The position numbers and the translations under genes are program-made. Source: a virus (lineage: Duplodnaviria; Heunggongvirae; Uroviricota; Caudoviricetes). From it: a stretch of 21,218 nt of DNA. Below the pieces are notes generated by a model. The model worked only from the letters and a program-made list of their open reading frames with translations, had not been told where the DNA came from and searched no databases. Location: the IMG/VR virus record IMGVR_UViG_2547132270_000005, positions 1-21,218 of that record. One strand, given 5' to 3'. Below are positions 1,475 through 19,710 of this stretch, in pieces; position 1 is the stretch's first letter; every line of letters begins with the position of its first letter.

Positions 1475-1867
1475 ATGTCTGAACCCTTATCCGGTTCCGG
1501 TACGGCTGCGGCGCTCGGCGGGGCGACGGTGTACGGGCTGTTTACCGGAACGGATTTCGGGATTGTGTTTGGTGCGTTCGCCGGGGCGTTGTTTGTGGCA
1601 ACGATGCCGCAGCAGCTTTCAGCCTGGCGTGTGGCGGCGCATTTTCTGGTGTCGTTCATTGTTGGCGTGCTGGGAGCGCGTGTGCTGTCAGCCTGGATAG
1701 CGGCAAAAACAGGTTATGACGGTACATCGGCAGATGCGCTGTGCGCGGTGCTTGTCGCGGTAGTGTCGGTAAAGATTCTGTCGTTCATCCACCAGCAGGA
1801 TATCGCATCACTGGTGTCCGGTCTGTTCTCCCGCCTGCGGGGCGGAGGAGGTGGCAATGTTAAGTAA
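1475..1867 (+). CDS. Putative holin-like membrane protein (130 aa, multiple predicted transmembrane segments)
   Basis: Strong RBS (AGGAG) before the ATG at 1475. Gly/Ala-rich hydrophobic segments; sits immediately upstream of the endolysin gene. Holin call is by position and hydrophobicity, not motif. Confidence 0.55.
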   Translation: MSEPLSGSGTAAALGGATVYGLFTGTDFGIVFGAFAGALFVATMPQQLSAWRVAAHFLVSFIVGVLGARVLSAWIAAKTGYDGTSADALCAVLVAVVSVKILSFIHQQDIASLVSGLFSRLRGGGGGNVK

Positions 1868-2135
1868 CCTTCCCGACTTGCTGAATGTGGCGTTATGCAC
1901 GGTTATTGTGCTGACGCTCTTTTTTTATCGTCGCCGTGATTCCAGACATAAACCGCTGATGTCATGGCTGGCCTGGCTGCTGATGCTGCTTTATGCCTTT
2001 GCACCACTCAGCTATCTGTGCGGTCGCCCGTTAGCGGCGAACTGGCTGGCGGTGGGGCTTAATCTGCTGTTCTGCGTGTTGGTGATTCGCGCACGTGGGA
2101 ACGTTTCAAAAATCTTTGTATTACGAAGGCGCTGA
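1857..2135 (+). CDS. Second lysis-cassette membrane protein (about 92 aa; holin or antiholin-like)
   Basis: RBS GGAGGAGG precedes the ATG at 1857 (track ORF begins at 1851). Three hydrophobic stretches. The stop lies 2 nt before the endolysin start. Confidence 0.5.
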   Translation: MLSNLPDLLNVALCTVIVLTLFFYRRRDSRHKPLMSWLAWLLMLLYAFAPLSYLCGRPLAANWLAVGLNLLFCVLVIRARGNVSKIFVLRRR

Positions 2136-2136
2136 T

Positions 2137-2682
2137 ATGAAGTCGAAAGATGAAATTTTTGACGAAGTTCTGGGAAAAGAGGGCGGTTACGTCAATCACC
2201 CGGATGATAAAGGCGGACCGACAAAATGGGGTATTACGGAAAAAGTCGCCCGCGCTCACGGATATCAGGGCGATATGCGTGACCTGACACGCGAACAGGC
2301 GCTGGAAATCCTTGAGGCGGATTACTGGTTCGGACCACGCTTTGATCAGGTGGCCGCATTATCCTCTGATATTGCTGCAGAGTTGTGTGATACCGGTGTG
2401 AATATGGGGCCGTCCGTAGCATCGAAAATGCTCCAACGCTGGCTGAACGTTTTCAACCTGCAAGGCAAATTGTTCCCGGATATGGACGCAGACGGGCGTA
2501 TCGGCCCCCGCACGATTAATGCACTACGGACTTATCTGCAAAAACGCGGCAAAGACGGCGAACTGGTGATGCTGAAGGCGCTGAATTGCACGCAGGGCGA
2601 CCGCTATCTGGAGCTGGCAGAAAAACGCGAGGCCAACGAGTCGTTTGTCTACGGCTGGATGAAAGAGCGCGTAGCAGTTTAA
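2137..2682 (+). CDS. Endolysin, glycoside hydrolase family 108-like N-terminal domain with a C-terminal peptidoglycan-binding domain
   Basis: N-terminus DEIFDEVLGKEGGYVNHPDDKGGPTKWGIT matches the conserved GH108 N-terminal pattern (EGG...P.D.GG.T..GIT). The C-terminal region resembles a PG-binding domain. Start chosen at ATG 2137 (RBS GAAGG); the track ORF opens at 2095. Confidence 0.8.
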   Translation: MKSKDEIFDEVLGKEGGYVNHPDDKGGPTKWGITEKVARAHGYQGDMRDLTREQALEILEADYWFGPRFDQVAALSSDIAAELCDTGVNMGPSVASKMLQRWLNVFNLQGKLFPDMDADGRIGPRTINALRTYLQKRGKDGELVMLKALNCTQGDRYLELAEKREANESFVYGWMKERVAV

Positions 2683-3325: not shown

Positions 3326-4114
3326 ATGAGCGAGAAATTGAAGATCGTCTATCGCCCTTTACAAGAACTGTCTCCGTATGCACACAACGCCAGAACACAC
3401 AGCCCTGAGCAGGTGGCACAACTGGTAGAAAGCATTAAGCAATTCGGCTGGACTAATCCGGTGCTGATTGATGAAAAGGGCGAAATTATTGCGGGTCACG
3501 GTCGCGTTATGGCGGCTGAAGTGCTCAAAATGGATTCCATTCCGGTCATCGTTCTGTCTGGTCTGACGGATGATCAGAAAAAGGCGTACCGCCTGGCAGA
3601 TAATCGCCTGCCGATGAATGCTGGCTGGGATGAAGAGCTGTTACGGATGGAGCTGTCGGACCTAATCAATGCTGATTTTGATGTCTCCCTGACAGGCTTC
3701 AGCCCGACAGAAATTGATGAACTGTTGACGGATGTTTTGCCCGGTACAGGAAATGAGGAGGAGCCGTATACGACGAAAATTGATACGCCTGTTTATGAGC
3801 CGTCGGGCGGTAAACCGGATATCAGTGAACTGTACGACGATACGAAAACTCAGAAGTTGATCAGCCGGATACGTTCGGCGTCCCTTGATCCTGATATTGA
3901 GAAATTCCTCCTGTGTGCGGCAGAACGTCACACGGTGTTTAATTTCAGCAGAATTGCGGACTATTACGCTCACGCCCCTGCTGAAATTCAGTGCCTTTTC
4001 GAGGAGTCGGCGCTGGTGATCATTGATTATCAGCAGGCTATTGAAAATGGATTTGTCCGGATGACGCAGCGCATGGTGGAGATCATGCATGGCGGGGAGG
4101 AGGAATATGCGTGA
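3326..4114 (+). CDS. ParB-like (ParB/Srx fold) nuclease-domain protein, 262 aa
   Basis: The N-terminal roughly 100 aa (YRPLQELSPYAHNARTHSPEQVAQLVESIKQFGWTNPVLIDEKGEIIAGHGRVMAA...) fits the ParB N-terminal domain pattern, including the GxGR-type motif. The C-terminal half is unassigned. Confidence 0.7.
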   Translation: MSEKLKIVYRPLQELSPYAHNARTHSPEQVAQLVESIKQFGWTNPVLIDEKGEIIAGHGRVMAAEVLKMDSIPVIVLSGLTDDQKKAYRLADNRLPMNAGWDEELLRMELSDLINADFDVSLTGFSPTEIDELLTDVLPGTGNEEEPYTTKIDTPVYEPSGGKPDISELYDDTKTQKLISRIRSASLDPDIEKFLLCAAERHTVFNFSRIADYYAHAPAEIQCLFEESALVIIDYQQAIENGFVRMTQRMVEIMHGGEEEYA

Positions 4115-5039
4115 TGATTTTTGCGCCTTTATTCTGACTCACGGGCGACCGGACAAAGTTCTGACTTACCGGACGTTGCGTCGTGCTGGCTATACCGGGA
4201 AAATTTTTATCGTTGTTGATGATGAAGATAAGACACGGCATCAGTACATGGCTGAATTTGGTGAACAGGTGCTGGTGTTTTCCAAAGCCGATATCGCCAG
4301 TCGTTTTGACGAAGCCGATAATTTCGGTGACCGGCGCTCAATTTTTTACGCCCGTAATGCCTGTTTCGACCTGGCAAAACTGGTCGGGTGTAAATACTTC
4401 ATTCAGCTCGATGATGATTATCACGAGTTCCAGTTTCGGGTGGATCGCAACTATGACCAGGCCTATTTTCCGATAAGGAAACTGGATGCGATCCTTTCTG
4501 AAATGCTGGCGTATTACGAATCAATACCCGCGCTTTCCATCGCTATGTCGCAGGGCGGGGATTTTCTTGGTGACAATGGCGGCCATGCTTCGTGGGTGAA
4601 ACGCAAGGCAATGAACAGCTTTATCTGTTCGGTTGATCGACCGTTCTCATTCATGGGGCGCATTAACGAGGATGTGAATACGTACACGAATCTCGGTCGC
4701 CGTGGTGAATTGTTTATGACGATCGGTGCTGTCCAGTTAGGGCAGAAACAGACGCAGAAAAACAGCGGCGGAATGACCGAGCTGTATCTGGATTCCGGAA
4801 CCTATGTTAAAAGTTTTTACTCCGTCATGCATGCGCCGTCGTGCGTAAAAATCTCACTGATGGGCGCCAGCCATAAACGCATTCACCATCAGGTCACCTG
4901 GAACAACGCTGCAGTAAAAATCCTTCACGAAAAATACAGGAAGAAGACACCCTGCATATCAATGGGGGTGACAAATGATTCCGTATTCGAAAGTCGAGTC
5001 TCTGGCAGCGTGCCGGATGACTGCACAACAAATCGCTGA
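4107..5039 (+). CDS. Hypothetical enzyme, possibly glycosyltransferase-A-like (acidic motifs IFIVVDDED and IQLDDDYHEF)
   Basis: RBS GGAGGAGG before the ATG at 4107 (track ORF opens at 4089); the ParB-like stop falls inside its first codons. Motif spacing resembles the GT-A/GT2 DxD arrangement. No PP-loop or methyltransferase motifs were seen. Function is inference only. Confidence 0.55.
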   Translation: MRDDFCAFILTHGRPDKVLTYRTLRRAGYTGKIFIVVDDEDKTRHQYMAEFGEQVLVFSKADIASRFDEADNFGDRRSIFYARNACFDLAKLVGCKYFIQLDDDYHEFQFRVDRNYDQAYFPIRKLDAILSEMLAYYESIPALSIAMSQGGDFLGDNGGHASWVKRKAMNSFICSVDRPFSFMGRINEDVNTYTNLGRRGELFMTIGAVQLGQKQTQKNSGGMTELYLDSGTYVKSFYSVMHAPSCVKISLMGASHKRIHHQVTWNNAAVKILHEKYRKKTPCISMGVTNDSVFESRVSGSVPDDCTTNR

Positions 5040-7639: not shown

Positions 7640-7657
7640 AAAATCAGGATATTTTTG

Positions 7658-9094
7658 ATGGCAGAGATCGAGATTACTGGCGGCCTCGGTTCAGCACTGA
7701 TGCATATTCTTGAGGCTGAAGAAATTCAGCCGGGAACCGACATTGGCTATGAATTGTGTAAGCAGCTGTGGCAATTCCATCCTCTGGGCGGAAAACTTGT
7801 CGAAAAACCCATACTGATGGCGATGTGTAAGCCGCGCCAGTATAACGTGGAAACCGACCCTGACGAACGGGTTGTGCGGCGTTTCCAGGAGGTGTGGGAG
7901 CGCATGAAGGTGAACGAGAAGATTAAAAATCTGTTTTTTCTCTCTCGTTGCTACGGTGCTGCAGCGATCGGCGTGGGCACCGACAGTGTTTCATGTCGTG
8001 AGCCGCTTCCGACATTCGGGCTGACAGAAGAGGATGTGTATATCAACGCGTGGGATCCGTTGAACGCTTCCGGTTCGATGGTGACTGACCAGAACCCAAA
8101 CAGTCCGTTTTTCCAGGAAGCCAATAAAAAGCTAAAGATTGGCGGAAAAGACTGGCATCCGTCACGCACGTTGAAAATTTTCAACGGCACACCGATTTAT
8201 CTGGAGTTTCAGAGTTCATCGTTCGGATTCACCGGGCGAAGCGTGTTTCAGCGAGTTCTTTATTCCCTGAAATCCTATATCAACACGATGGAGGCGAATG
8301 ATCTCGTCAGTCAGAAAGCGGGCGTACTGGTAGCTAAAGTTGTGCAGAACGGTTCGAAACTTGACGGGATCATGGCTGCCGCCACGGGACGAAAAAGGGA
8401 AAATGTCAAAGAGGCAAAAAATAAAGGTGTGCTTAGTATCGGGAAGGATGAGGACGTTACCTCGCTGAATTTACAAAACATCGATGGCGCGCTAAATGCC
8501 GCCCGCGACAACATTATTTCCGATATTGCATCAGGTAGCGATGTTCCCGCGATTCTCATCAAGGAGGAGGCTTTCTCGAATGGTTTCGGTGAAGGAACTG
8601 AGGATTCGAAAGCTATCAGCCAGTATATCGATGGTGTACGCCAGCAGATTGAACCTGTGATGGATTATTTCGAACGCCTGGTGCAGTACATCGCCTGGAA
8701 CGAGGAATTTTATCAGTCGCTGAAAAATGATTACCCGGACATCATAACCGACGACTATAAAACCACGTTTTACCAGTGGCGACGTGAATTTACCGCGACG
8801 TGGCAGGAGCTGGTTGAGGAGTCGCCGGACAAACGCCGGGAAAGCGACAGTAAAGTGATTCAACAGGCGATAGCACTTTTCTCTGCCGTGTCGCCACAGG
8901 TTGATCCTGAAAACCGCGCTGCCGTCACTGAATGGCTGGCAAGTCTTGTTAATGCCACGCAAACCTATGGCGAAGCTCCACTCATCATTGATGTGGACGC
9001 GCTGGCGAATTATGAACCACCGAAGCAGGAGACGCCTGATGGCAATTTCCAGCCGGGCGGTGAGGAAGAAGAAACGGATCAGGACGCTGTATGA
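7658..9094 (+). CDS. Portal protein (putative)
   Basis: About 479 aa, directly downstream of the terminase large subunit, acidic C-terminus. Called from position and size; no motif-level confirmation. Confidence 0.65.
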   Translation: MAEIEITGGLGSALMHILEAEEIQPGTDIGYELCKQLWQFHPLGGKLVEKPILMAMCKPRQYNVETDPDERVVRRFQEVWERMKVNEKIKNLFFLSRCYGAAAIGVGTDSVSCREPLPTFGLTEEDVYINAWDPLNASGSMVTDQNPNSPFFQEANKKLKIGGKDWHPSRTLKIFNGTPIYLEFQSSSFGFTGRSVFQRVLYSLKSYINTMEANDLVSQKAGVLVAKVVQNGSKLDGIMAAATGRKRENVKEAKNKGVLSIGKDEDVTSLNLQNIDGALNAARDNIISDIASGSDVPAILIKEEAFSNGFGEGTEDSKAISQYIDGVRQQIEPVMDYFERLVQYIAWNEEFYQSLKNDYPDIITDDYKTTFYQWRREFTATWQELVEESPDKRRESDSKVIQQAIALFSAVSPQVDPENRAAVTEWLASLVNATQTYGEAPLIIDVDALANYEPPKQETPDGNFQPGGEEEETDQDAV

Positions 9095-9872
9095 GGTTCT
9101 GACGGATGCCGTTAACTACTACGTAAATCGCGGGTGGGATAGCGAAAAATCATTGCTCGAATGGTGCCGGAAACTCCGTGTAGCCGCTCAGCGAGAAACC
9201 CCTGATGATACCGTAGCCAGAAAACACCTCACCGCTATCTACAGCCGTCTTGTCATCGACGGCGGGGCATTACGGGATCAGCCTCCTGACGGCCCAAAAA
9301 AAATCACTGTTGAAAAACTGAAACCTGAGTTTCGCAAGGAACTCGACAGGCGAATTTTCGCCAGTGCCAACCTGATAAAACTCAACCGCGAACAGGCCAT
9401 CGAGAAAACCATACAGCGTTTTCAGGGGTGGGTTACGTCCATTCCGCCTGACGGGGTGAGCGAAATTGATCGCCGGGAAGTGAAGTCCGGTTTTCAGAAG
9501 TCCGTGAAGGATATGGATTTTATCAGTCGCCGGGTGGCAATTGACCAGGGGCATAAGCTGGCAAGCAACGTTAAGTATCTGCTGGCTGTTCAGAGTGGTG
9601 CGATTGCTCTGCGCTGGCATTCGAACTGGCGGCGTCCGGGCTACAAATACCGGCAGGACCACAAAGAGCGCGACGAGAAAATTTATCTCCTCCGCGATTC
9701 GTGGGCGCTGGAGCAGGGACTGATTAAGCCCGTATATGGTTTTTATGACGAAATCACTGCTGCCGGGGAGGAGGTTTATTGCAGTTGCGATGCACTGCCG
9801 ATCTACGCCCCTCAGAAACTACCCGACGAATTTTTAACGGAGAAGGGCAAACGTGAGTTTAACCGAGCTTGA
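9039..9872 (+). CDS. Putative head morphogenesis / minor head protein
   Basis: RBS AGGAG 7 nt before the ATG at 9039 (track ORF opens at 8901, overlapping the portal gene). Position between portal and scaffold matches the usual slot for MuF-like proteins. Family is not confirmed. Confidence 0.5.
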   Translation: MAISSRAVRKKKRIRTLYEVLTDAVNYYVNRGWDSEKSLLEWCRKLRVAAQRETPDDTVARKHLTAIYSRLVIDGGALRDQPPDGPKKITVEKLKPEFRKELDRRIFASANLIKLNREQAIEKTIQRFQGWVTSIPPDGVSEIDRREVKSGFQKSVKDMDFISRRVAIDQGHKLASNVKYLLAVQSGAIALRWHSNWRRPGYKYRQDHKERDEKIYLLRDSWALEQGLIKPVYGFYDEITAAGEEVYCSCDALPIYAPQKLPDEFLTEKGKREFNRA

Positions 9873-11175
9873 AGTGGCAGAACGCATCAGGGACGGAACC
9901 GTACCGTCTCCGGTGAAATTCTCCAACATGTGGCTGGTGAATTTGCGAATAACCGGAACCGGGCTTGCCTATCGCGCCGGGCTGAAAGAGTACGTCTGGC
10001 GTGATCCAAAGCTCTATCTGAACGAGGAGTTTTTAAGGCGATGCAATGGCCTTCCGGTTATCGCAAACCATCCTGACGACGCAGTTCTGACGGAGGAGGA
10101 CTTTAAATCGCGGATCGTCGGTAGCGTCATGCTGCCGTATATCCGGGGTGATGAGGTATGGGCGGTGTGCCGCGTTTACCTCCAGAGCATTGTTGAAGAA
10201 ATCACTGAGGGGGATGTTTCGACAAGCCCGTCGGTGGTGTTCAACAGCACATCAGGAAATGTGGAAGTACAGGAAGGTGACACCAATTTTTTAATCGAAG
10301 GCGTTCCTTTCCTTGTTGATCACATCGCCCTGGTGACGAAAGACCACGGCTCGCTGGGCGTGTGGGATAAAGACCGGATCCCCGCAGGGGTTGAAGTGAC
10401 AAACACAGGTGAAATCGAGATGGAAAAAGAAGAACTCCAGGCCCTGTTACAGGGGGTTGTGAGCGATGCCCTGCAAGGCATTAATCAGAAAATCGATGGT
10501 GTCGTTACGCGCATGGACTCACTGGAACAGCGGGACAAAGCGCGGGCGGATGCCGAAGAACAGGCGAAAAAAGAGGCCGAAGAAAAGGCCAAAGCCGATG
10601 AAGCCGCAGAGGAACAGCGTAAAGCTGATGAAGCTGCGGCAAAGGAGGCGGAAGAAAAAGCCAAAGCTGACGAGGCAGCAGCTAAAGATGCTGAGGAGAA
10701 AGCAAAGGCTGATTCCGAAGCAGAAGAACAGCGTAAGGCCGACGAGGAGGCAGAAAAAGAACGCAATGATTCTGCCTTGGCAGAAGCGCAGGCAAAAGCC
10801 GACTCCGCATTCAGTGCCTGCGGTAAAAACGCGCCAGCACCGTTTTCTGGTGAAAATGCGCTGGACTACCGCAAGCGTGCGCTAATCGCTATGCAGAAAC
10901 ACTCTCCGGCACATAAGGACGTCAATATTCGCGCGATTGCGGATTCTGCAACGCTGGCTGTGCTTGAGGACGCAATTTTCAGTGCCGCCCGTCAGTCCAT
11001 CGAAAAAGAAATGATGAGTACGCAGGGGCAACTGCATAAACGTATCCGCAACGATGAAGCCGGGCGTCGCATTACTGAATATCAGGGCGATCCGAACGTC
11101 TGGCTGAGTGCTTTCAAAATTCCGGGGCGTCGTCTGGCAAAAATTAACACTCAAGGGAGCCTGAACAATGGCTGA
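9853..11175 (+). CDS. Putative prohead scaffold/protease-like protein with a central Ala/Glu/Lys-rich coiled-coil repeat
   Basis: GTG start with RBS GGAGAAGG. N-terminal globular domain, then a roughly 70-aa repeat region (AEEKAKADEAA...EEQRKADE), then a C-terminal domain. Scaffold position upstream of capsid genes. Confidence 0.6.
   Translation: MSLTELEVAERIRDGTVPSPVKFSNMWLVNLRITGTGLAYRAGLKEYVWRDPKLYLNEEFLRRCNGLPVIANHPDDAVLTEEDFKSRIVGSVMLPYIRGDEVWAVCRVYLQSIVEEITEGDVSTSPSVVFNSTSGNVEVQEGDTNFLIEGVPFLVDHIALVTKDHGSLGVWDKDRIPAGVEVTNTGEIEMEKEELQALLQGVVSDALQGINQKIDGVVTRMDSLEQRDKARADAEEQAKKEAEEKAKADEAAEEQRKADEAAAKEAEEKAKADEAAAKDAEEKAKADSEAEEQRKADEEAEKERNDSALAEAQAKADSAFSACGKNAPAPFSGENALDYRKRALIAMQKHSPAHKDVNIRAIADSATLAVLEDAIFSAARQSIEKEMMSTQGQLHKRIRNDEAGRRITEYQGDPNVWLSAFKIPGRRLAKINTQGSLNNG
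10575..10760 (+). repeat. In-frame tandem repeat encoding an AEEKAKADEAA / EEQRKADE coiled-coil segment
   Basis: Seen directly: two roughly 72-nt units with a shorter partial copy between them. It also generates the spurious overlapping ORFs 10466..10885 (+) and 10485..10766 (-). Confidence 0.7.
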
Positions 11176-11785
11176 TATTAACTTTCATCCGTTTAAAAAC
11201 CGTGGAGCATTTGGTGGCCTTTTTAACGTCGAATCCCGTGGGCTGATGCAGGGGGATGCGCAGGATGATCCGGCAATTCGTCTGCAACTTTGCTCCGGTC
11301 GACTGGACAGCAAAATCACTGAACCGGTATGGGGTGGCGTTGGAGTTATGGAGTGCATTGCTCCCGCGAAAGACAGCGTTAACGGCGCGGTAATTAAACA
11401 AGCCACGAAGGACGCCTGTAACGCCTTTACTGTCTTTAATCAGGCATTTCATGGCATTACCACGCCGGATAATCCGGTGCCGTTATATCTCGCGGGTGGC
11501 TTTGTTCACTATTACCGCGTTGGCTCAGGTGCCCGCATTCCTCTCCCTGTCAGTGCAGAAGTTGTTGCGCTGGCTGATGGAAATAACACCGTTGCTGCCA
11601 GTGGTTTTGTGTGGGATCTGACGAAAAACATGGTTGATGTTTATTCGGGATCACCCGGAGCTAATCCGAAAGTGGATATTAAGTTGCTGATGGTTTCAGT
11701 TGACGGAAACCTGACGGTGAAAAAAGAGGATGGCGGTAACGTTGTCTGGGAAATCGGCAAACCGTGCGGCCTGTTTTTAATTTAA
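11168..11785 (+). CDS. Putative capsid-associated structural protein (205 aa)
   Basis: RBS AAGGGAG; located between the scaffold and major capsid genes. No recognisable motif. Confidence 0.5.
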   Translation: MADINFHPFKNRGAFGGLFNVESRGLMQGDAQDDPAIRLQLCSGRLDSKITEPVWGGVGVMECIAPAKDSVNGAVIKQATKDACNAFTVFNQAFHGITTPDNPVPLYLAGGFVHYYRVGSGARIPLPVSAEVVALADGNNTVAASGFVWDLTKNMVDVYSGSPGANPKVDIKLLMVSVDGNLTVKKEDGGNVVWEIGKPCGLFLI

Positions 11786-14233: not shown

Positions 14234-15164
14234 GGAATTAGCCGAACAGCACAGTTCGCAGCTCTCATCCGTTCTTAAATCCGCAGTTGAAACCATCTCG
14301 TCAGACCAGGAAATCACGTTCAGGCTCTATGTCCGGCAGGTTCTGCCGCTGGATGGCTTTGTCTATTGGGTTAATGCGGAAATCATCAGTTGCGATGAAC
14401 TGTGTCGCCTGAATATTGAGTCACCAACCAGTCTGAAAATCAAAGGCAGCCTGCATCGTCAGGTTATTGCGATTCAGGACGAGTCTGTCTCGAAGGATGT
14501 GAACAACATTATTTTCACGCCTGTCCAGCAGGTTGATGATTTTAATGTAGAAAATCCCGATGCGATCTATCTCGGTGAGTACGGCGGCGTTCAGTTCGCT
14601 TTTTCACGAATGGAGAGCCGTTATCAGCAGTCGGGTATTTTTCATTATCGCGGCATGGCGATTTTACCAACTATGCGTTCTCAGATTATCGACTGCGAGG
14701 AGGATATCAGCGACGAGCAGATCATCTCCAACAGCATTCCGATCTGGCTGCAAATGAAAGATGCCGCGACCGTGTATCCGTCTTACCTGGTACCTCAGAA
14801 CCTTCGTCCTCCGTATATCGCGGTGGATGTTCGCAACAGCATTCCGTTGCAGGTGGCTCCCGTTGTTTTCGGTGGCGAGCGATTCCAGCTCGTCCAGGAT
14901 TCGGTTCGCCTGACGCTTTACGGATTCAGCAACAAAATGGCGCTGGATCTTGTCGACTCGGTGGTGAACAGGGCGCTGGAGGAGGAAAGGTTTGGTGTAA
15001 CTAATATTCCGGTGGTTCAGGACGCAAAGTCGGGACAGGTTGAAATCAACGCTCTGGCGAAGAAAAAAATTGTCGATTTTGACGTGAATTACTACCAGAG
15101 CACCGCCCGGGAAATATCCCGGCAGTTGATTGAAAAAGTTATTTGTAAATATGAGGTTAAATAA
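14220..15164 (+). CDS. Hypothetical virion morphogenesis protein (314 aa)
   Basis: Overlaps the upstream gene by 14 nt; stop overlaps the sheath gene start (TAATG). No recognisable motif. Confidence 0.5.
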   Translation: MPSLEELAEQHSSQLSSVLKSAVETISSDQEITFRLYVRQVLPLDGFVYWVNAEIISCDELCRLNIESPTSLKIKGSLHRQVIAIQDESVSKDVNNIIFTPVQQVDDFNVENPDAIYLGEYGGVQFAFSRMESRYQQSGIFHYRGMAILPTMRSQIIDCEEDISDEQIISNSIPIWLQMKDAATVYPSYLVPQNLRPPYIAVDVRNSIPLQVAPVVFGGERFQLVQDSVRLTLYGFSNKMALDLVDSVVNRALEEERFGVTNIPVVQDAKSGQVEINALAKKKIVDFDVNYYQSTAREISRQLIEKVICKYEVK

Positions 15165-16501
15165 TGGGATTTAATATCGTCACGGTGAATGTGTCCCAGA
15201 CCATCGGGGCTATACCCTCGAATTTGCAGCAGATGTCTGCGGTTCTCTCGTTTGGATCCACGACTCATGAGCCGGGGAAGCCTGTATTACTCACCAGCAA
15301 TCAGGATATTAACGATCTGGTTAAAAATCCGATTGCTGCGTTGTCGGCGGCTGCCGCAGGAAAGTCTGCGGCAAACGTCACCGTTACGATGACGCTTCCG
15401 GAAGGGAGCAACATCCGACGCGAAAACAGTTCTGAGGTGAAAATTGTTGTTTCCGGGTGTTCGCCCGACGCGTGGAATGGCGAATATACTGCTACCGTCA
15501 CGGATGAAAAAACACTGACCTGGACGATTGCTGATTCTCAGCTTTCCGGTTCGCCAGTGACACTGGGGCAGTTTTCCATTGTCGGCAGTGAAAATCTGGT
15601 GACGGCAGTAAACACGTTTTTTGCTCAGGGAAATTCAGTTGGGATTTACCTGCTGGAGCTGGGAGTACAGAAAGGCGGGGTCAGTAAGGAAATCGCTGCA
15701 CTGAAAGCTTATATGGAAGATCCGCTCCTGCGGTTTTATGCGTATCTGGTGCCGCAGCCGTGGGATGGTGACGCAGAATTTATCAGTCTGGCAAAACTCC
15801 ACACCGCCAACGAAGCGATGCAGTATTTCTTCGTGTTGACAAAAACGCCGGACGACACGAATTACGTTTCGCCTTATGCCGGTATTAAGTCGGTTATTGC
15901 AACGGCGGATGATACGTACCCGGCGACAAACGCGGCAGCAGCCGTAATGTGGAACTATGTTTCCGCATCACCTTCAGAAATCAACAAGGTGCCGCCGATG
16001 GCATTTCGCTATCTGCAGGCGGTAAACGCCCACAAGGGCAAAAATTCCATTCTGGCTACGATGACGAAGCAGAATATTAACTACGTCGACACGGGGGCTG
16101 AGGGGGGAATTTCCAACACGATTCTGGTGAAAGGCGTTACCAGTGACGGTAACGATATGACGTACTGGTATTCCGTTGACTGGGTGCAGATTAATGTCGA
16201 TATGCAGCTCGCCAACACGGTGATCAACGGCAGCAATAACCCAATTAACCCGCTTTACTACAACCAGGACGGGATCGACCGTCTACAGCAGGTCGCACAG
16301 GCGGTGTTCAATACGGGCGTATCTTACGGCCTGGTCAACGGTCAGCCTGTCGTCGATGCAGTGCCTTTCCGTCAGTATATCAACACTAATCCGAATGATT
16401 ACGGTATCGGGCGTTATGCAGGCCTTTCGGCCTCCTATACGCCGATGCGTGGATTTGTCGAAATCGTTTTTAACATCAATGTGACAATGCAGCTTTCGTG
16501 A
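15164..16501 (+). CDS. Tail sheath-like protein (445 aa)
   Basis: Large protein immediately upstream of a small tube-like protein, a chaperone pair and the tape measure gene, the standard contractile-tail order. Called from position and size. Confidence 0.55.
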   Translation: MGFNIVTVNVSQTIGAIPSNLQQMSAVLSFGSTTHEPGKPVLLTSNQDINDLVKNPIAALSAAAAGKSAANVTVTMTLPEGSNIRRENSSEVKIVVSGCSPDAWNGEYTATVTDEKTLTWTIADSQLSGSPVTLGQFSIVGSENLVTAVNTFFAQGNSVGIYLLELGVQKGGVSKEIAALKAYMEDPLLRFYAYLVPQPWDGDAEFISLAKLHTANEAMQYFFVLTKTPDDTNYVSPYAGIKSVIATADDTYPATNAAAAVMWNYVSASPSEINKVPPMAFRYLQAVNAHKGKNSILATMTKQNINYVDTGAEGGISNTILVKGVTSDGNDMTYWYSVDWVQINVDMQLANTVINGSNNPINPLYYNQDGIDRLQQVAQAVFNTGVSYGLVNGQPVVDAVPFRQYINTNPNDYGIGRYAGLSASYTPMRGFVEIVFNINVTMQLS

Positions 16502-16512
16502 GGGACTGAACC

Positions 16513-16956
16513 GTGCCTAATCCAATGATCCCCGTTGGCACCCTTAACCGGGTTCGCGCCAGCGTTAAATTCACCTCTCATTCCGAACTGAATGTGTCCG
16601 CCTCATTTCTGGCAAAAGAAGGCGTCGAATTGTCCTTTCAGGGCAATATCACGGAGTTTTTACCCGCTATGACGGGAGCCGTGCAGTCGCCGCAGCCATA
16701 CATGATTTTACAGGCGCGTGTTCATCTTCTGCGTAGCCAGGCGCTGGGAAAACAATTCAAGGCGCAATGGGAAAAGAACGCCACGATCGGCGACGCAAAA
16801 GTGTATAGCGACAGCACGGTGTTCGGTGACTTCGATATCTATAACACGGCGATCACCAACGTGCAGGATATGACCTTCGCCGGGGGCGAGCCGGGAGTGG
16901 CCATCACCATTACCGGTACGTATTACATCAACTCTGAAATGTGGGAGCTGGTATGA
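16513..16956 (+). CDS. Tail tube-like protein (147 aa)
   Basis: GTG start with RBS GAGGGA 7 nt upstream. Size and position between the sheath and chaperone genes. Confidence 0.55.
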   Translation: MPNPMIPVGTLNRVRASVKFTSHSELNVSASFLAKEGVELSFQGNITEFLPAMTGAVQSPQPYMILQARVHLLRSQALGKQFKAQWEKNATIGDAKVYSDSTVFGDFDIYNTAITNVQDMTFAGGEPGVAITITGTYYINSEMWELV

Positions 16957-17570
16957 AAATCTCCCGAAATCTGAATCTGATTATTCCTGTCCGGACAGAA
17001 AAGGGTAACGGCTGGATCCATGCCACGCCGATCAGCAAAGAGGTGTTTAAAGAGCACTTCTTCATCCTGAGTAAAACCTTTTCCGCCATTTTTTCAGAAG
17101 GCCTTGGCGTCGTTGCGGGTCCGCGTATTGCTTTTTTGATGCTGGAGCGGATCTCGCGTGATTCCGGTATCTGGGACGATGATAAGGGAGTTCGTAATAC
17201 GCTGGTGAACGAAATAATTCGCCTGGCAAACCTTGTTTATCCGGTGGAGGGCAAAGGTTACGACACAATCCCTCTTGATATGGCGCTGGAGCGTGAAATC
17301 GTTGAGCTGGATGATGTTGCGGGTGAACTCGTTTTTTTTACATGCGTCTCGTCGATAAATTCACCGGAGCAGGCGAAGGGGACTATGGATGTGGTCAATG
17401 GAATATGGAGCACTCAATGCTCGTCATTGAATCTTACGGAATGGATCGCTTCATTGCCGACATTGAAATCAGCCGCCAGTTCTGGCACGACGGCGAACAC
17501 GTCATCAGCGACATCCTCGACTACTCAGCCGGAGCCGGATTCAGAGACATCTGCGCAGATTCCGGTCTGA
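16953..17570 (+). CDS. Tail assembly chaperone (zero-frame product), with a Ser/Thr-rich low-complexity C-terminus
   Basis: ATG at 16953 overlaps the tube gene stop (ATGA); the track ORF opens at 16941. Directly upstream of the tape measure gene and overlapped by a -1 frame ORF. Confidence 0.55.
   Translation: MKISRNLNLIIPVRTEKGNGWIHATPISKEVFKEHFFILSKTFSAIFSEGLGVVAGPRIAFLMLERISRDSGIWDDDKGVRNTLVNEIIRLANLVYPVEGKGYDTIPLDMALEREIVELDDVAGELVFFTCVSSINSPEQAKGTMDVVNGIWSTQCSSLNLTEWIASLPTLKSAASSGTTANTSSATSSTTQPEPDSETSAQIPV
17333..17339 (+). other. Candidate -1 programmed ribosomal frameshift slippery heptamer (T TTT TTT)
   Basis: Zero-frame codons are GTT TTT TTT ACA. A -1 slip gives TTT TTT TAC ATG..., which runs without a stop to 17635. 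Confidence 0.45.
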
Positions 17571-17635
17571 ATGTAAAAACAGCAGCTCAGTTTCGTGAGC
17601 TGCTCAAATTCAAAAATCCCGCAGGAGTATTGTGA
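17342..17635 (+). CDS. -1 frame extension ORF of the tail assembly chaperone (would yield a fusion of roughly 230 aa)
   Basis: ORF in the -1 frame relative to the chaperone; it overlaps the chaperone 3' region and ends at the tape measure start (GTGA overlap). This mirrors the conserved chaperone-frameshift arrangement upstream of tape measure genes. Confidence 0.45.
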   Translation: MRLVDKFTGAGEGDYGCGQWNMEHSMLVIESYGMDRFIADIEISRQFWHDGEHVISDILDYSAGAGFRDICADSGLNVKTAAQFRELLKFKNPAGVL

Positions 17636-19710
17636 TGGCTGGTAACCAGATGCCAGTTCTGACGCTGGATGTTAATGAAGAACACCTCAGGCGGCTGGAG
17701 GCGATATTTGAAAAGTATCGCAACGGGCTGATGATTGGCCCTGCCGGAACGCCGCTTAAAATACCTTCAAATACAAGTCAGGGAGGTGGCGCCCGGCAGA
17801 CAACCACAGGCGGAGAAGCCAATCAGGCTCCCAGGAAACCGTCTTCACCTGCGCCAGTTCCGGCTGCGTCCAGTGATGGACGTTTAAGGGATGAAAAAGG
17901 GCGCTTTGTTGGCAGCGGGAAAACACCTGATTCGCTGGTGAGCAACTATAAAGGTCGCGGCGAAACGATGTTTGATAAGTACCTCAGCGGGCTGGGGAAA
18001 AACGCCAAACAGACGCTGAAAACTTACAAGCAGATCAATTCTACGCTACGGACGACCACTTCGAGATTAAACAACCTGTTTAAAACCACCGTATCGTGGG
18101 GGACAAAACTTGCGGTTATGGGCGTTGCCGGGCCGTTTGGCTTTGGCATGATGGCCCGTAGTGTTGTAGAAAAACAGAAAAATGCAGATGAGCTTGTGGC
18201 AACGCCGGGAGAATTAAAGGCGGCAGAAAGCACTTATTCGCCTTATTTTTCCGGTGTTGGTAATTTGCTCAATACGCTGGCAGCCGCGCAAAATGATCAA
18301 GAACATCCCGCCCGTGTAGGTCTACTCAATCTGGGGATTAACCCTGATAAAAACGCGACGGAAAACCTTCCGACATTACTGGAAAGAGTCGCTGCTCTTG
18401 CAAAAGAGTATGAAGGAACCGGATTAACCCAGAGCATGTTAAGGGGACGCAGTCTTGGATGGGTAAATTTTGGTATTGCTAACCAGTTAGTCAAATATCA
18501 GGACAAAATACCTGAACTCAATAAAGAGTTTTTATCGCGAGCTTCTCAGAATGACTCGTTGCTCACCTCTGGACATACAAGCCAGTATCAGAATCTTACC
18601 AGCAACTTAGAAAATAACTGGGATCAACTTACCAGCGGATTTCAGGGGGCAATGTCGGGTAACTCTGTACAGCTAATCAGAATATCTAATGGTGTAAAGA
18701 ATGCTGGTCTAAATTTCCTTAACGGTGAGAACTTTAAAAGAATTTTGACTGATGTTGAAACAGGTCTGGATAAACTTGGTAAGTATGTAAATGGCCCGGA
18801 TTTTAATAACGACCTGAATAATTTTGCCGAAAATGTTGCAAAGGTTGTTAAGGCACTTAGCGGGTTTGTTGGTTTTGCTGTTGAACATCCCTGGCTTTTT
18901 GGAGCCGCAGTACTTGCTGGACCATCGAGAGTTGGCGCTGTGGCAGCCACAACGACCGGAGTTGCCGCCCGTGTTGTAGGTGGAAGTTTTCTTGGGGCTA
19001 CAGCCGGAACAGTAGCTGGATTGGCTATTCCTACAAATGACACACCTACCACCAGTGAGGAAATGAAAGGGCTGGATGGGCGTTTCAACTTTGATTATTT
19101 TAACGAAGTGCAGGAGTGGCAAAAAAACAATCCGGGCAAGGTCTGGCCTGGAGGATTGCAGGGGTTTTCAAATCAAGTAGACAGATCTGCATATTTATCC
19201 AGAGGGATCAGGAATAACAATCCCGGAAACCTTAATTTCGCAGGACAAAAAGGGGCGACCTTGGAATCGGGGCCAAATGCTCGTTTTGCCAGCTTCCCGA
19301 CGATGCTCGAAGGCATTGCTGCGTTAGATCGACAGGTCATGCTTTATCTGAAACGGGGCAAAAATACGATTGATCAGATTATTGATATTTATGCCCCTTC
19401 ATCTGATGGAAATAACACATCGTCCTATAAAAGCTATCTCTCTCGGTACACCGGTTTAGGTGTTAAGGAGAAAATCGATGGTTCTAATTTTGATGTTATG
19501 AAAAAACTAATTCAGGGCATTATTAACCATGAAAATGGGGCCGCCGCTCGTGCTGTAAGTGGCGATGATGTGATGCGGGCGCTGGCAATGAACCGGGGGA
19601 ACGTATATTCACCAAATAATGCTTCTCAGGTAATCAGGCTCGAAGTTCAACAAAAACCAGGTTCCGACATACTGGCACAACTCGCCGGAATGCAACAAAT
19701 ACCGGGGTAA
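17635..19710 (+). CDS. Tail tape measure protein (about 691 aa) with a Gly/Ala-rich hydrophobic segment and a distinct C-terminal globular region
   Basis: RBS AGGAG 7 nt before the ATG at 17635 (the track begins at a GTG at 17632). Long, helical and low-complexity, with a glycine-rich hydrophobic stretch (GFVGFAVEHPWLFGAAVLAGP...GATAGTVAGLAIP). Position after the chaperone frameshift pair. Confidence 0.7.
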   Translation: MAGNQMPVLTLDVNEEHLRRLEAIFEKYRNGLMIGPAGTPLKIPSNTSQGGGARQTTTGGEANQAPRKPSSPAPVPAASSDGRLRDEKGRFVGSGKTPDSLVSNYKGRGETMFDKYLSGLGKNAKQTLKTYKQINSTLRTTTSRLNNLFKTTVSWGTKLAVMGVAGPFGFGMMARSVVEKQKNADELVATPGELKAAESTYSPYFSGVGNLLNTLAAAQNDQEHPARVGLLNLGINPDKNATENLPTLLERVAALAKEYEGTGLTQSMLRGRSLGWVNFGIANQLVKYQDKIPELNKEFLSRASQNDSLLTSGHTSQYQNLTSNLENNWDQLTSGFQGAMSGNSVQLIRISNGVKNAGLNFLNGENFKRILTDVETGLDKLGKYVNGPDFNNDLNNFAENVAKVVKALSGFVGFAVEHPWLFGAAVLAGPSRVGAVAATTTGVAARVVGGSFLGATAGTVAGLAIPTNDTPTTSEEMKGLDGRFNFDYFNEVQEWQKNNPGKVWPGGLQGFSNQVDRSAYLSRGIRNNNPGNLNFAGQKGATLESGPNARFASFPTMLEGIAALDRQVMLYLKRGKNTIDQIIDIYAPSSDGNNTSSYKSYLSRYTGLGVKEKIDGSNFDVMKKLIQGIINHENGAAARAVSGDDVMRALAMNRGNVYSPNNASQVIRLEVQQKPGSDILAQLAGMQQIPG

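Follow-up and report, generated by a model that had tools for sequence, protein, structure and literature searches.

We found that, in an Escherichia prophage with a contractile tail, the protein encoded in the tape-measure position very probably carries, as a cassette between its tape-measure core and its C-terminal tail, a glycosidase domain of the Enc34-endolysin type that would serve at entry; both sequence comparison and structure modeling point in this direction. In near-identical tape measures, this domain is allelic with an SLT domain. It should be noted that the prophage may be an inactive remnant in its host. All coordinates refer to the window, i.e., the whole stretch of 21,218 nucleotides that was analyzed, and are collected in Table 1.

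Table 1. Features of the tape-measure-position gene and its surroundings in the window.
Feature	Position	Strand	Remarks
Own lysis cassette	1475-2682		Two holins and GH108 endolysin with PG_binding_3 domain
Sheath gene	15164-16501		phrog_205
Tube-position ORF	16513-16956		Between sheath and chaperone-position ORF
Tail assembly chaperone pair	16941..17635	+	0-frame ORF 16941-17570; from sequence and translation
Tape-measure-position gene	17632..19710	+	692 aa from GTG at 17632; from ORF list and translation
Gly/Ala-rich hydrophobic stretch, aa 409-467	18856..19032	+	Candidate membrane-inserting segment, upstream of enzyme domain
End of conserved tape-measure core and linker, aa 468-507	19033..19151	+	Includes FNFDYFNEVQEWQKNNPGKVWPG, taken for the domain start in the earlier note; near-identical in pPE4
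Exchangeable enzyme cassette, aa ~508-669	19152..19637	+	Enc34-type here; SLT in pPE4 and Rac-SA53
Folded Enc34-type (PHA02564) predicted peptidoglycan glycosidase domain, aa ~519-661	19186..19614	+	AF2, Foldseek, phmmer
Signature RNNNPGN, aa 527-533	19210..19230	+	Codons read directly
Tyr587, equivalent of Enc34 Trp79	19390..19392	+	HMMER alignment to 7q47_A; precedes invariant Ala-Pro
Tyr599, equivalent of Enc34 Tyr95	19426..19428	+	Y96 of chain 7q47_A; invariant Y113 of alignment A1
Glu634 (GAA), equivalent of Enc34 Glu131	19531..19533	+	Motif HENG; E132 of chain 7q47_A
Conserved C-terminal tail, aa 670-692	19639..19707	+	LEVQQKPGSDILAQLAGMQQIPG; common to Rac-SA53 and pPE4

The gene and its genomic context

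The genes are arranged in the order sheath, tube-position ORF, chaperone-position ORF, tape-measure-position gene and baseplate genes. RefSeq relatives of the last-named protein use an alternative start, ATG at 17635, which gives 691 aa. The chaperone-position ORF contains a slippery run of eight T (T8, 17332-17339) that lies in phase, and from 17339 the -1 frame is open up to the TGA at 17633-17635, the last base of which is also the first of the ATG at 17635. The T8 run is kept at the homologous site in three relatives (L001, L002 and L003); the frameshift rule for tail chaperones is that of Xu, Hendrix and Duda 2004, as cited in PMC9024508. Because a chaperone pair with a predicted -1 frameshift sits directly upstream, the next gene is taken to be the tape measure. 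An earlier note, made from the sequence of the window, had called the product a tape measure protein, and the position of the gene, with the chaperone pair and its T8 run on one side and the baseplate genes on the other, bears this out.

The assignment comes from gene position and not from a tape-measure sequence family. The Pfam scan found no tape-measure domain in the 692-aa protein, and no PHROG tape-measure family matched its N-terminal 500 aa; phrog_2276 (labeled 'tail length tape measure protein') matches aa 499-641 only, i.e., the enzyme domain. Over its full length, the protein matches phrog_7694, the function of which is not annotated, and P0056 from Escherichia albertii is 100% identical to it. 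With the N-terminal 509 aa as query, the best 120 homologues listed were all near-identical proteins. Two Pfam matches of the whole protein, both below threshold, were discarded as chance, namely, WXG100 at aa 100-146 (E 0.004, 17.7 bits versus a cut-off of 27.3) and CH_2 (E 0.28). An antisense gene under the C-terminal region was also rejected, there being no ORF of at least 60 aa on the minus strand at 19123-19710.

The gene might instead encode a different internal protein of the tail or baseplate, one that carries a lysin, with the tail length set elsewhere. Such a reading would agree with the missing Pfam and PHROG matches of the N-terminal part, with the low confidence of the full-length model, and with the 507-aa core, which at 1.5 A per residue would span at most ~76 nm. 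However, no other long ORF lies between the sheath, tube and chaperone genes and the baseplate genes; the chaperone pair, the conserved slippery run and the stop-start overlap lie directly upstream; and DSSP assigns mostly helix to aa ~98-460 of the full-length AF2 model, which, with a mean pLDDT of only 32 and a shallow input alignment of 10 near-identical sequences, lends weak secondary-structure support only. On balance, we consider a protein other than the tape measure unlikely, and the C-terminal domain would be read as muralytic in either case. A literature search for the tail length of the relative Rac-SA53 gave none; the name occurs in one unrelated survey.

Upstream of the enzyme domain, the Gly/Ala-rich stretch reaches a Kyte-Doolittle mean of up to 1.61 (19-residue window). 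It is nearly identical in the relative pPE4 and is not kept in Rac-SA53. In the independent myophage PA-1 of Pantoea, whose protein in the tape-measure position ends in the same domain, a similar hydrophobic stretch precedes the Enc34-type domain.

Limits and fold of the C-terminal domain

When the last 206 aa were modeled by AF2 from an alignment with 34 homologues, the mean pLDDT was 83, with values above 90 at fragment residues ~33-175, which correspond to the domain limits in Table 1. In the predicted structure, this part is compact and all-alpha, in line with the helical fold of the family, which resembles the alpha-lobe of lysozyme. The sole significant Foldseek match in the PDB was 7q47 (E 1.5e-8, probability 1.00, target TM 0.72-0.74), both chains of which (7q47_A and 7q47_B) were matched at E ~2e-8; the next PDB matches, globins, acylases and others at E>0.5, were regarded as noise. 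Matches in BFVD bore the names 'virion protein', 'tail-fiber/lysozyme' and 'internal virion protein D'. The limits were also obtained independently of the model, since the DNA homology to a relative with another domain stops at 19151 and restarts at 19638. The model, the profile matches and these breakpoints mark the C-terminal part of the protein as a distinct, autonomously folding unit.

These results agree with the proposal in the earlier note that a distinct folded domain is appended to the C-terminus: the model is confident, PHROG and PDB matches are found, and the breakpoints in the DNA are sharp. The extent given there, the last ~200 aa, holds for the part within aa ~519-661, whereas the first ~20 aa and the last ~23 aa of that region are tape-measure scaffold. 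The start at 19090 was too early, given that FDYFNEVQEWQKNNPGKVWPG (aa 487-507) is part of the conserved core of the tape measure and is near-identical in pPE4. The idea that the region loses helical character has to be abandoned in view of the compact all-alpha fold of the AF2 model. The C-terminal tail is placed outside the fold because the AF2 confidence is low there. Regardless of the enzyme cassette, this tail is kept; it is a probable, albeit putative, assembly anchor.

Family membership and active site

[quoted passage not shown] The PHROG labels on the stretch are endolysin, tail length tape measure protein and tail injection transglycosylase. At ~27% identity to the Enc34 catalytic domain, the domain is by sequence a member of the Enc34-endolysin type, to which the CDD family PHA02564 is linked through 7Q47 and the papers on these enzymes. 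A profile search with the domain retrieved 21,561 clusters (50% identity), of which 15,504 had E<=1e-10. Neither the whole protein nor its last 206 aa gave a relevant Pfam or NCBIfam match; the window protein did not match SLT (PF01464) even when the threshold was relaxed to E<=1, and the domain had no sequence match to the GH73 N-acetylglucosaminidases (Pfam Glucosaminidase).

The motifs RNNNPGN, AP, NNT-x2-Y and ENG are all intact in the window domain, and in the 34-sequence alignment the signature residues R41, N42, N43, N44, P45 and N47 are invariant. Glu634 (E148 of alignment A1, conserved in at least 90% of the sequences) and Tyr599 are identical to their Enc34 counterparts, and Tyr587 stands for Trp79, so that the position is still aromatic; all three positions are invariant or nearly so in the family alignment. 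The numbering of chain 7q47_A is that of the paper plus one. For the Enc34 endolysin, the accessible part of PMC8943055 describes the role of Trp79 and proposes that Glu131 is catalytic, by superposition on GH73 and GH23 enzymes; no mention of Glu131 mutagenesis was found in that part. The same source reports that the catalytic domain (ORF39deltaC) lyses outer-membrane-permeabilized E. coli, P. aeruginosa and H. alvei. The homologue M4Lys, as M4LysdeltaTMD, degrades purified peptidoglycan, and mass spectrometry suggests that it is an N-acetylglucosaminidase (PMC7143992). The possibility that the C-terminal region is a cell-wall-degrading, entry-related domain, raised in the earlier note, is thus supported by homology, seen in the sequence and in the predicted fold, to an experimentally muralytic domain, with the Glu and the aromatic residues kept.

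Enzyme swap among relatives

In pPE4 and Rac-SA53, Pfam SLT (PF01464) occupies the equivalent position. The pPE4 protein is 72% identical to the window protein overall and near-identical up to the swap point. Core and C-terminal tail (the last ~23 aa) persist across the swap, in Rac-SA53 as well as in pPE4. The breakpoints obtained with blastn are 19151 and 19638 against pPE4 (L003) and 19657 against L001. This natural exchange of an Enc34-type for an SLT domain argues that both do an equivalent muralytic job. Among 5426 complete E. coli genomes, 45 contain the Enc34-type cassette. Between the cassette and an E. coli copy with 95% identity, there are 16 synonymous and 7 non-synonymous codon differences, a pattern that is consistent with purifying selection.

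The same comparisons bear on whether the domain could be a catalytically dead structural module, which would plug or organize the end of the tail tip, or bind peptidoglycan without cutting it. The Tyr in place of Trp79 would suit a dead module, as would the conserved C-terminal tail, which shows that the region is under assembly constraints. Nevertheless, we judge such a module very unlikely: the catalytic Glu and the four motifs are intact and (nearly) invariant across the family, the substitutions in the cassette are mostly synonymous, and relatives fill the slot with another enzyme, which fits selection for a catalytic function and not for a particular shape.

Proposed role at entry

We infer the enzymatic activity of the protein and its role at entry. 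Because the window has a separate holin-endolysin cassette, the most likely function of the domain is that of an entry lysin borne by the virion; that it is the endolysin of the phage was rejected in view of this complete set of holin, holin and GH108 endolysin. A related alternative is that the domain serves, as in Enc34 and M4Lys, to lyse the cell from within when the lytic cycle ends, and not at entry. The characterized homologues are indeed endolysins that join the domain to hydrophobic helices and can lyse cells without a holin, and a hydrophobic stretch adjoins the domain in the window protein too. We give this alternative hardly any credence, however, considering not only the lysis cassette but also the fusion of the domain with a tail protein of 500 aa, whose gene stands midway in the tail morphogenesis operon, and the many homologues that sit in virion proteins (internal virion protein D, tail proteins).

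In the proposed entry role, the tape measure would lie inside the tail tube with its C-terminus toward the baseplate end, and contraction of the sheath would expel it into the periplasm. There, the domain would cut glycan strands locally, such that the tube or a DNA conduit could reach the inner membrane; the Gly/Ala-rich hydrophobic stretch may aid membrane insertion. The bond cut is more likely to be GlcNAc-MurNAc (N-acetylglucosaminidase) than that of a lytic-transglycosylase reaction, a preference that follows from the analogy with M4Lys.

It is conceivable, although we find it doubtful, that hydrophobic helices and an Enc34-type glycosidase together form a self-inserting, envelope-breaching module that has moved between virion proteins and lysis cassettes. 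If so, tape measures and internal proteins of podophages would be among its hosts in the virion, the Chi-type endolysins (Enc34 ORF39 and M4Lys, which are holin-independent and Sec-independent) would be domesticated tape-measure ends, and the way in which these two endolysins cross the membrane would mirror what the tape measure does at entry.

Comparison with known systems

The Enc34 endolysin (ORF39, PDB 7Q47) and its homologue M4Lys of Salmonella phage BSPM4 belong to the same family as the window domain and agree with it in predicted fold, in the motifs RNNNPGN, AP, NNT-x2-Y and HENG, and in the proposed catalytic Glu. The Enc34/M4Lys enzyme is a 26-kDa protein of the lysis cassette, in which the enzyme is N-terminal to a two-helix transmembrane domain and acts from within, whereas the window protein, a tail protein of 692 aa, carries it as a C-terminal cassette downstream of the hydrophobic stretch, and a separate endolysin is encoded. 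The tape measures with SLT (vB_Apl-pPE4, Rac-SA53, P1 Sit) occupy the same gene position and have the same layout of helical core, enzyme domain and short tail; their enzyme is a GH23 lytic transglycosylase, to which the Enc34-type domain is unrelated in sequence.

An Enc34-type domain is also present in Gp29 (PDB 9VVP) and in proteins named 'internal virion protein D' or 'with endolysin domain' (T7-like podophages, Kayfunavirus and relatives), and several database records annotate proteins of the Gp29 type as ejected or internal virion proteins or ejectosome components of short-tailed phages. In these proteins the domain is N-terminal on ~1300 aa, in contrast to its C-terminal place on the tape measure of a contractile tail. 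A literature search on the accession 9VVP gave HPV vaccine papers only, and none on the Gp29 phage. Among siphophages, Pb2 of T5 and Tmp of mycobacteriophage TM4 likewise combine a tape measure with a cell-wall-degrading entry activity, but differ in enzyme and tail type. Pb2 reportedly has a metallopeptidase motif, and Tmp is said to have Rpf-like or peptidase motifs. A lysin domain on a tape measure is an ordinary and already known arrangement, and the present case adds one more candidate Gram-negative lysin domain while leaving knowledge of phage entry unchanged; P1 Sit, T5 Pb2 and TM4 Tmp are muralytic precedents from literature cited in PMC9024508 and, for the siphophages, also in PMC1796659.

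Annotation and use of the alleles

A function can now be proposed for a protein that RefSeq calls hypothetical. In older NCBI records, many near-identical 691-aa proteins are named 'lytic transglycosylase domain-containing protein', and the precomputed Pfam assignment of the 691-aa relatives is empty; the name was probably transferred from allelic variants that carry SLT. Despite ~21,500 clusters at 50% identity, the Enc34-type muralytic domain had no model in the copies of Pfam and NCBIfam that were searched. Its candidate role as a tail-borne entry lysin in myoviral prophages of the E. coli group, interchangeable with SLT, makes the two kinds of alleles a natural pair for comparing entry lysins, and the E. 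coli prophage alleles would allow an isogenic test of enzyme type in host range and in stationary-phase infection.

C-terminal domain of the tape-measure protein

Using an alignment of 34 homologues, we modelled the last 206 aa of the protein in tape-measure position and found a compact, confident domain (AlphaFold pLDDT >90 at fragment residues ~33-175, i.e., aa 519-661, nt 19186-19614), with segments of low model confidence on either side. This bears out the distinct folded C-terminal domain proposed in the earlier note, with refined boundaries: the confident fold lies in an exchangeable cassette, 19152-19637. The region was also said to lose the helical, low-complexity character of the rest of the protein; it does differ in globularity and composition, but not in helicity, because the domain itself is all-helical in the model. 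Scans of the whole protein and of the last 206 aa against Pfam and NCBIfam returned no model for the domain. The domain search on the C-terminal part that the note had called for gave matches in PHROG and, of Enc34 type, in PDB sequences and Foldseek. The domain stretch matches PHROG 873 (endolysin, 4e-30), PHROG 2276 (tail length tape measure protein, 4.7e-30), PHROG 7182 (tail injection transglycosylase, 2.9e-23) and also PHROG 992 (head protein). The PDB sequence matches are Gp29 of 9VVP (1295 aa; its residues 3-116, E 2e-14) and 7Q47, the catalytic domain of phage Enc34 endolysin (E 1e-11), which is also the sole significant Foldseek match of the model in the PDB (E 1.5e-8, probability 1.00, target-normalised TM 0.72-0.74). 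Matches in BFVD are named "virion protein", "tail-fiber/lysozyme protein" and "internal virion protein D".

The Enc34 domain is described as a member of CDD family PHA02564 that lyses Gram-negative cells with permeabilised outer membrane and adopts a fold of six helices with a distant resemblance to the lysozyme alpha-lobe; its Glu131, Trp79 and Tyr95 superpose on catalytic residues of GH73 and GH23 (PMC8943055). With the numbering offset applied (chain 7q47_A equals the paper numbering +1), Glu131 aligns with E634 of the window protein (GAA, 19531-19533), Trp79 with Y587 and Tyr95 with Y599. The 34-sequence alignment has invariant RNNNPGN (G excepted), two Phe, Gly-x2-Ala, Ala-Pro, Asn and the Tyr equivalent to Tyr95, and the Glu131-equivalent Glu is kept in at least 90% of sequences. 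By sequence and predicted fold, the domain is homologous to a muralytic enzyme, with the predicted active-site residues conserved. The homologue M4Lys degrades purified peptidoglycan, yielding products that, by mass spectrometry, suggest N-acetylglucosaminidase activity (PMC7143992). The biochemistry of this homologue points to a glucosaminidase rather than a lytic transglycosylase. It should be noted that the current RefSeq name of the window-type protein is "hypothetical protein", and many near-identical 691-aa proteins (among the listed homologues P0057-P0175) bear the NCBI name "lytic transglycosylase domain-containing protein", despite the absence of an SLT (lytic transglycosylase) domain from both; SLT is found in the allelic variants of phage vB_Apl-pPE4 (pPE4) and of Rac-SA53. 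The assignment is of some small value for naming.

A profile search (E<=1e-3) recovered 21,561 Enc34-type clusters at 50% identity, comprising stand-alone proteins of 130-250 aa and domains located N-terminally, internally or C-terminally within proteins of 500 to >3000 aa. The 737 phage records with the domain include Chi-like endolysins, T7-like internal virion proteins, DMS3-like Pseudomonas phages and tail proteins. Because this family is very large and tape measures with muralytic domains are textbook knowledge, the window domain is a further case of an already known arrangement.

Exchange of the cassette between relatives

Over their whole alignment, the pPE4 tape measure and the window protein share 72% identity; they are near-identical up to residue ~507, then completely divergent, with similarity returning in the last ~25 residues. 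At the DNA level, homology ends at 19151 and restarts at 19638. Rac-SA53 shows the same pattern with a more divergent core. Both relatives have a Pfam SLT domain as their divergent stretch (E 8e-18 and 1e-20). The segment taken earlier as the domain start, FDYFNEVQEWQKNNPGKVWPG (aa 487-507), thus belongs to the core, because it is conserved in relatives with a different domain; nor does the domain reach the protein end, since the last ~23 aa are common to relatives across the swap.

The close relatives are chromosomal prophages. Among 5426 complete E. coli genomes, 92 match the gene (best identity 95%), and Escherichia albertii has a protein with 100% identity. The Enc34-type cassette is present in 45 of the 5426 genomes and the pPE4-type SLT cassette in 27 (five full-length matches), so that E. 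coli hosts both alleles, an unusually clean allelic pair. Compared to a 95%-identical E. coli copy, the cassette codons have 16 synonymous and 7 non-synonymous differences. Occupation of the slot by two unrelated peptidoglycan-cleaving domains argues that it is under selection for muralytic activity, with assembly as the role of the flanks (core and C-terminal tail). The tape-measure-position protein of Pantoea phage PA-1, an unrelated myophage, likewise ends in this domain (49% identity for the domain alone, tblastn), preceded by a hydrophobic stretch as in the window protein.

The recorded host of pPE4 (PP818812.1, "Actinobacillus phage vB_Apl-pPE4") is Actinobacillus pleuropneumoniae. Yet at the DNA level the phage shares 88-92% identity with tail genes of Escherichia prophages, and E. 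coli ETEC chromosomes match its SLT cassette at 99.6%. This makes the host assignment look questionable, or the phage an induced E. coli prophage.

Tape-measure assignment and proposed role

The identification of ORF 17632-19710 as the tape measure is positional and well supported. Within the chaperone-position ORF, an eight-T run (17332-17339) has the phase needed for a -1 slip (T_TTT_TTT). From there, 98 codons can be read in the -1 frame before a TGA (17633-17635) that overlaps the ATG at 17635; continued in frame 0, the ORF encodes a low-complexity tail rich in Ser and Thr. Rac-SA53, pPE4 and an E. coli prophage keep the run at the corresponding position in spite of substitutions flanking it. 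Judged from sequence, this layout is the frameshift arrangement of tail chaperones that is conserved ahead of tape-measure genes (Xu et al. 2004, cited in PMC9024508). Pfam/NCBIfam and PHROG searches matched no tape-measure family in the N-terminal 500 aa. The full-length AlphaFold model (mean pLDDT 32, unreliable) is mostly helical over aa ~98-460. A Gly/Ser/Thr/Pro-rich low-complexity stretch (aa ~30-98, 17719-17925; 60% G+A+S+T+P in aa 51-100) was modelled without regular structure and contains a 5-aa indel (PVPAA) compared to Rac-SA53 and pPE4.

The suggestion of a cell-wall-degrading, entry-related domain gains support from the muralytic homologue, the conserved predicted active-site residues, the location on a tail protein and the separate endolysin encoded elsewhere in the phage. 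By analogy with known tape measures, the protein would occupy the lumen of the tube, its C-terminus towards the baseplate, and contraction would expel it, allowing the domain to open peptidoglycan locally; T5 Pb2, TM4 Tmp and P1 Sit are precedents (cited in PMC9024508, PMC1796659). A Gly/Ala-rich hydrophobic stretch (aa 409-467), not conserved in Rac-SA53, may, speculatively, insert into the inner membrane.

Gene order of the late region

The window encodes the late genes of a prophage with a contractile tail. The lysis cassette is followed by small and large terminase, portal, protease/scaffold-like protein and major head protein; counterparts of the genes downstream of the tape measure are baseplate components in relatives.

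Features of the prophage late region
Feature	Coordinates	Basis or remark
Lysis cassette	1475-2682	complete; two holins and GH108 endolysin with PG_binding_3 domain
Phage_holin_8	1475-1867	
Phage_holin_3_7	1851-2135	
GH108 endolysin with PG_binding_3 domain	2095-2682	
ParB_N-domain protein	3326-4114	with its 4089-5039 neighbour, directly upstream of small terminase
TET-associated glycosyltransferase	4089-5039	Pfam TAGT, E 6e-36; after ParB_N gene, before small terminase
Portal protein	7655-9094	phrog_146, E 1e-74
Protease/scaffold-like protein	9853-11175	DUF2213 in RefSeq; phrog_6216
Tail sheath	15164-16501	phrog_205
Tube-position ORF	16513-16956	gene position
Chaperone-position ORF	16941-17570	gene position
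Tape-measure-position ORF, 692 aa	17632-19710	

Cassette exchange extends to the endolysin, since an M15 metallopeptidase takes its place in the related E. coli prophage L002. The ParB_N and TAGT pair may be a DNA-modification module; the TAGT protein is called "GREB1-related protein" by RefSeq in a relative. The L002 portal (10027-11463) carries the RefSeq name "anti-CBASS protein Acb1 family protein", probably a misleading label. The protease/scaffold-like protein contains a long Ala/Glu/Lys-rich repeat (AEEKAKADEAA...), which probably accounts for the "TolA protein" label in Rac-SA53.
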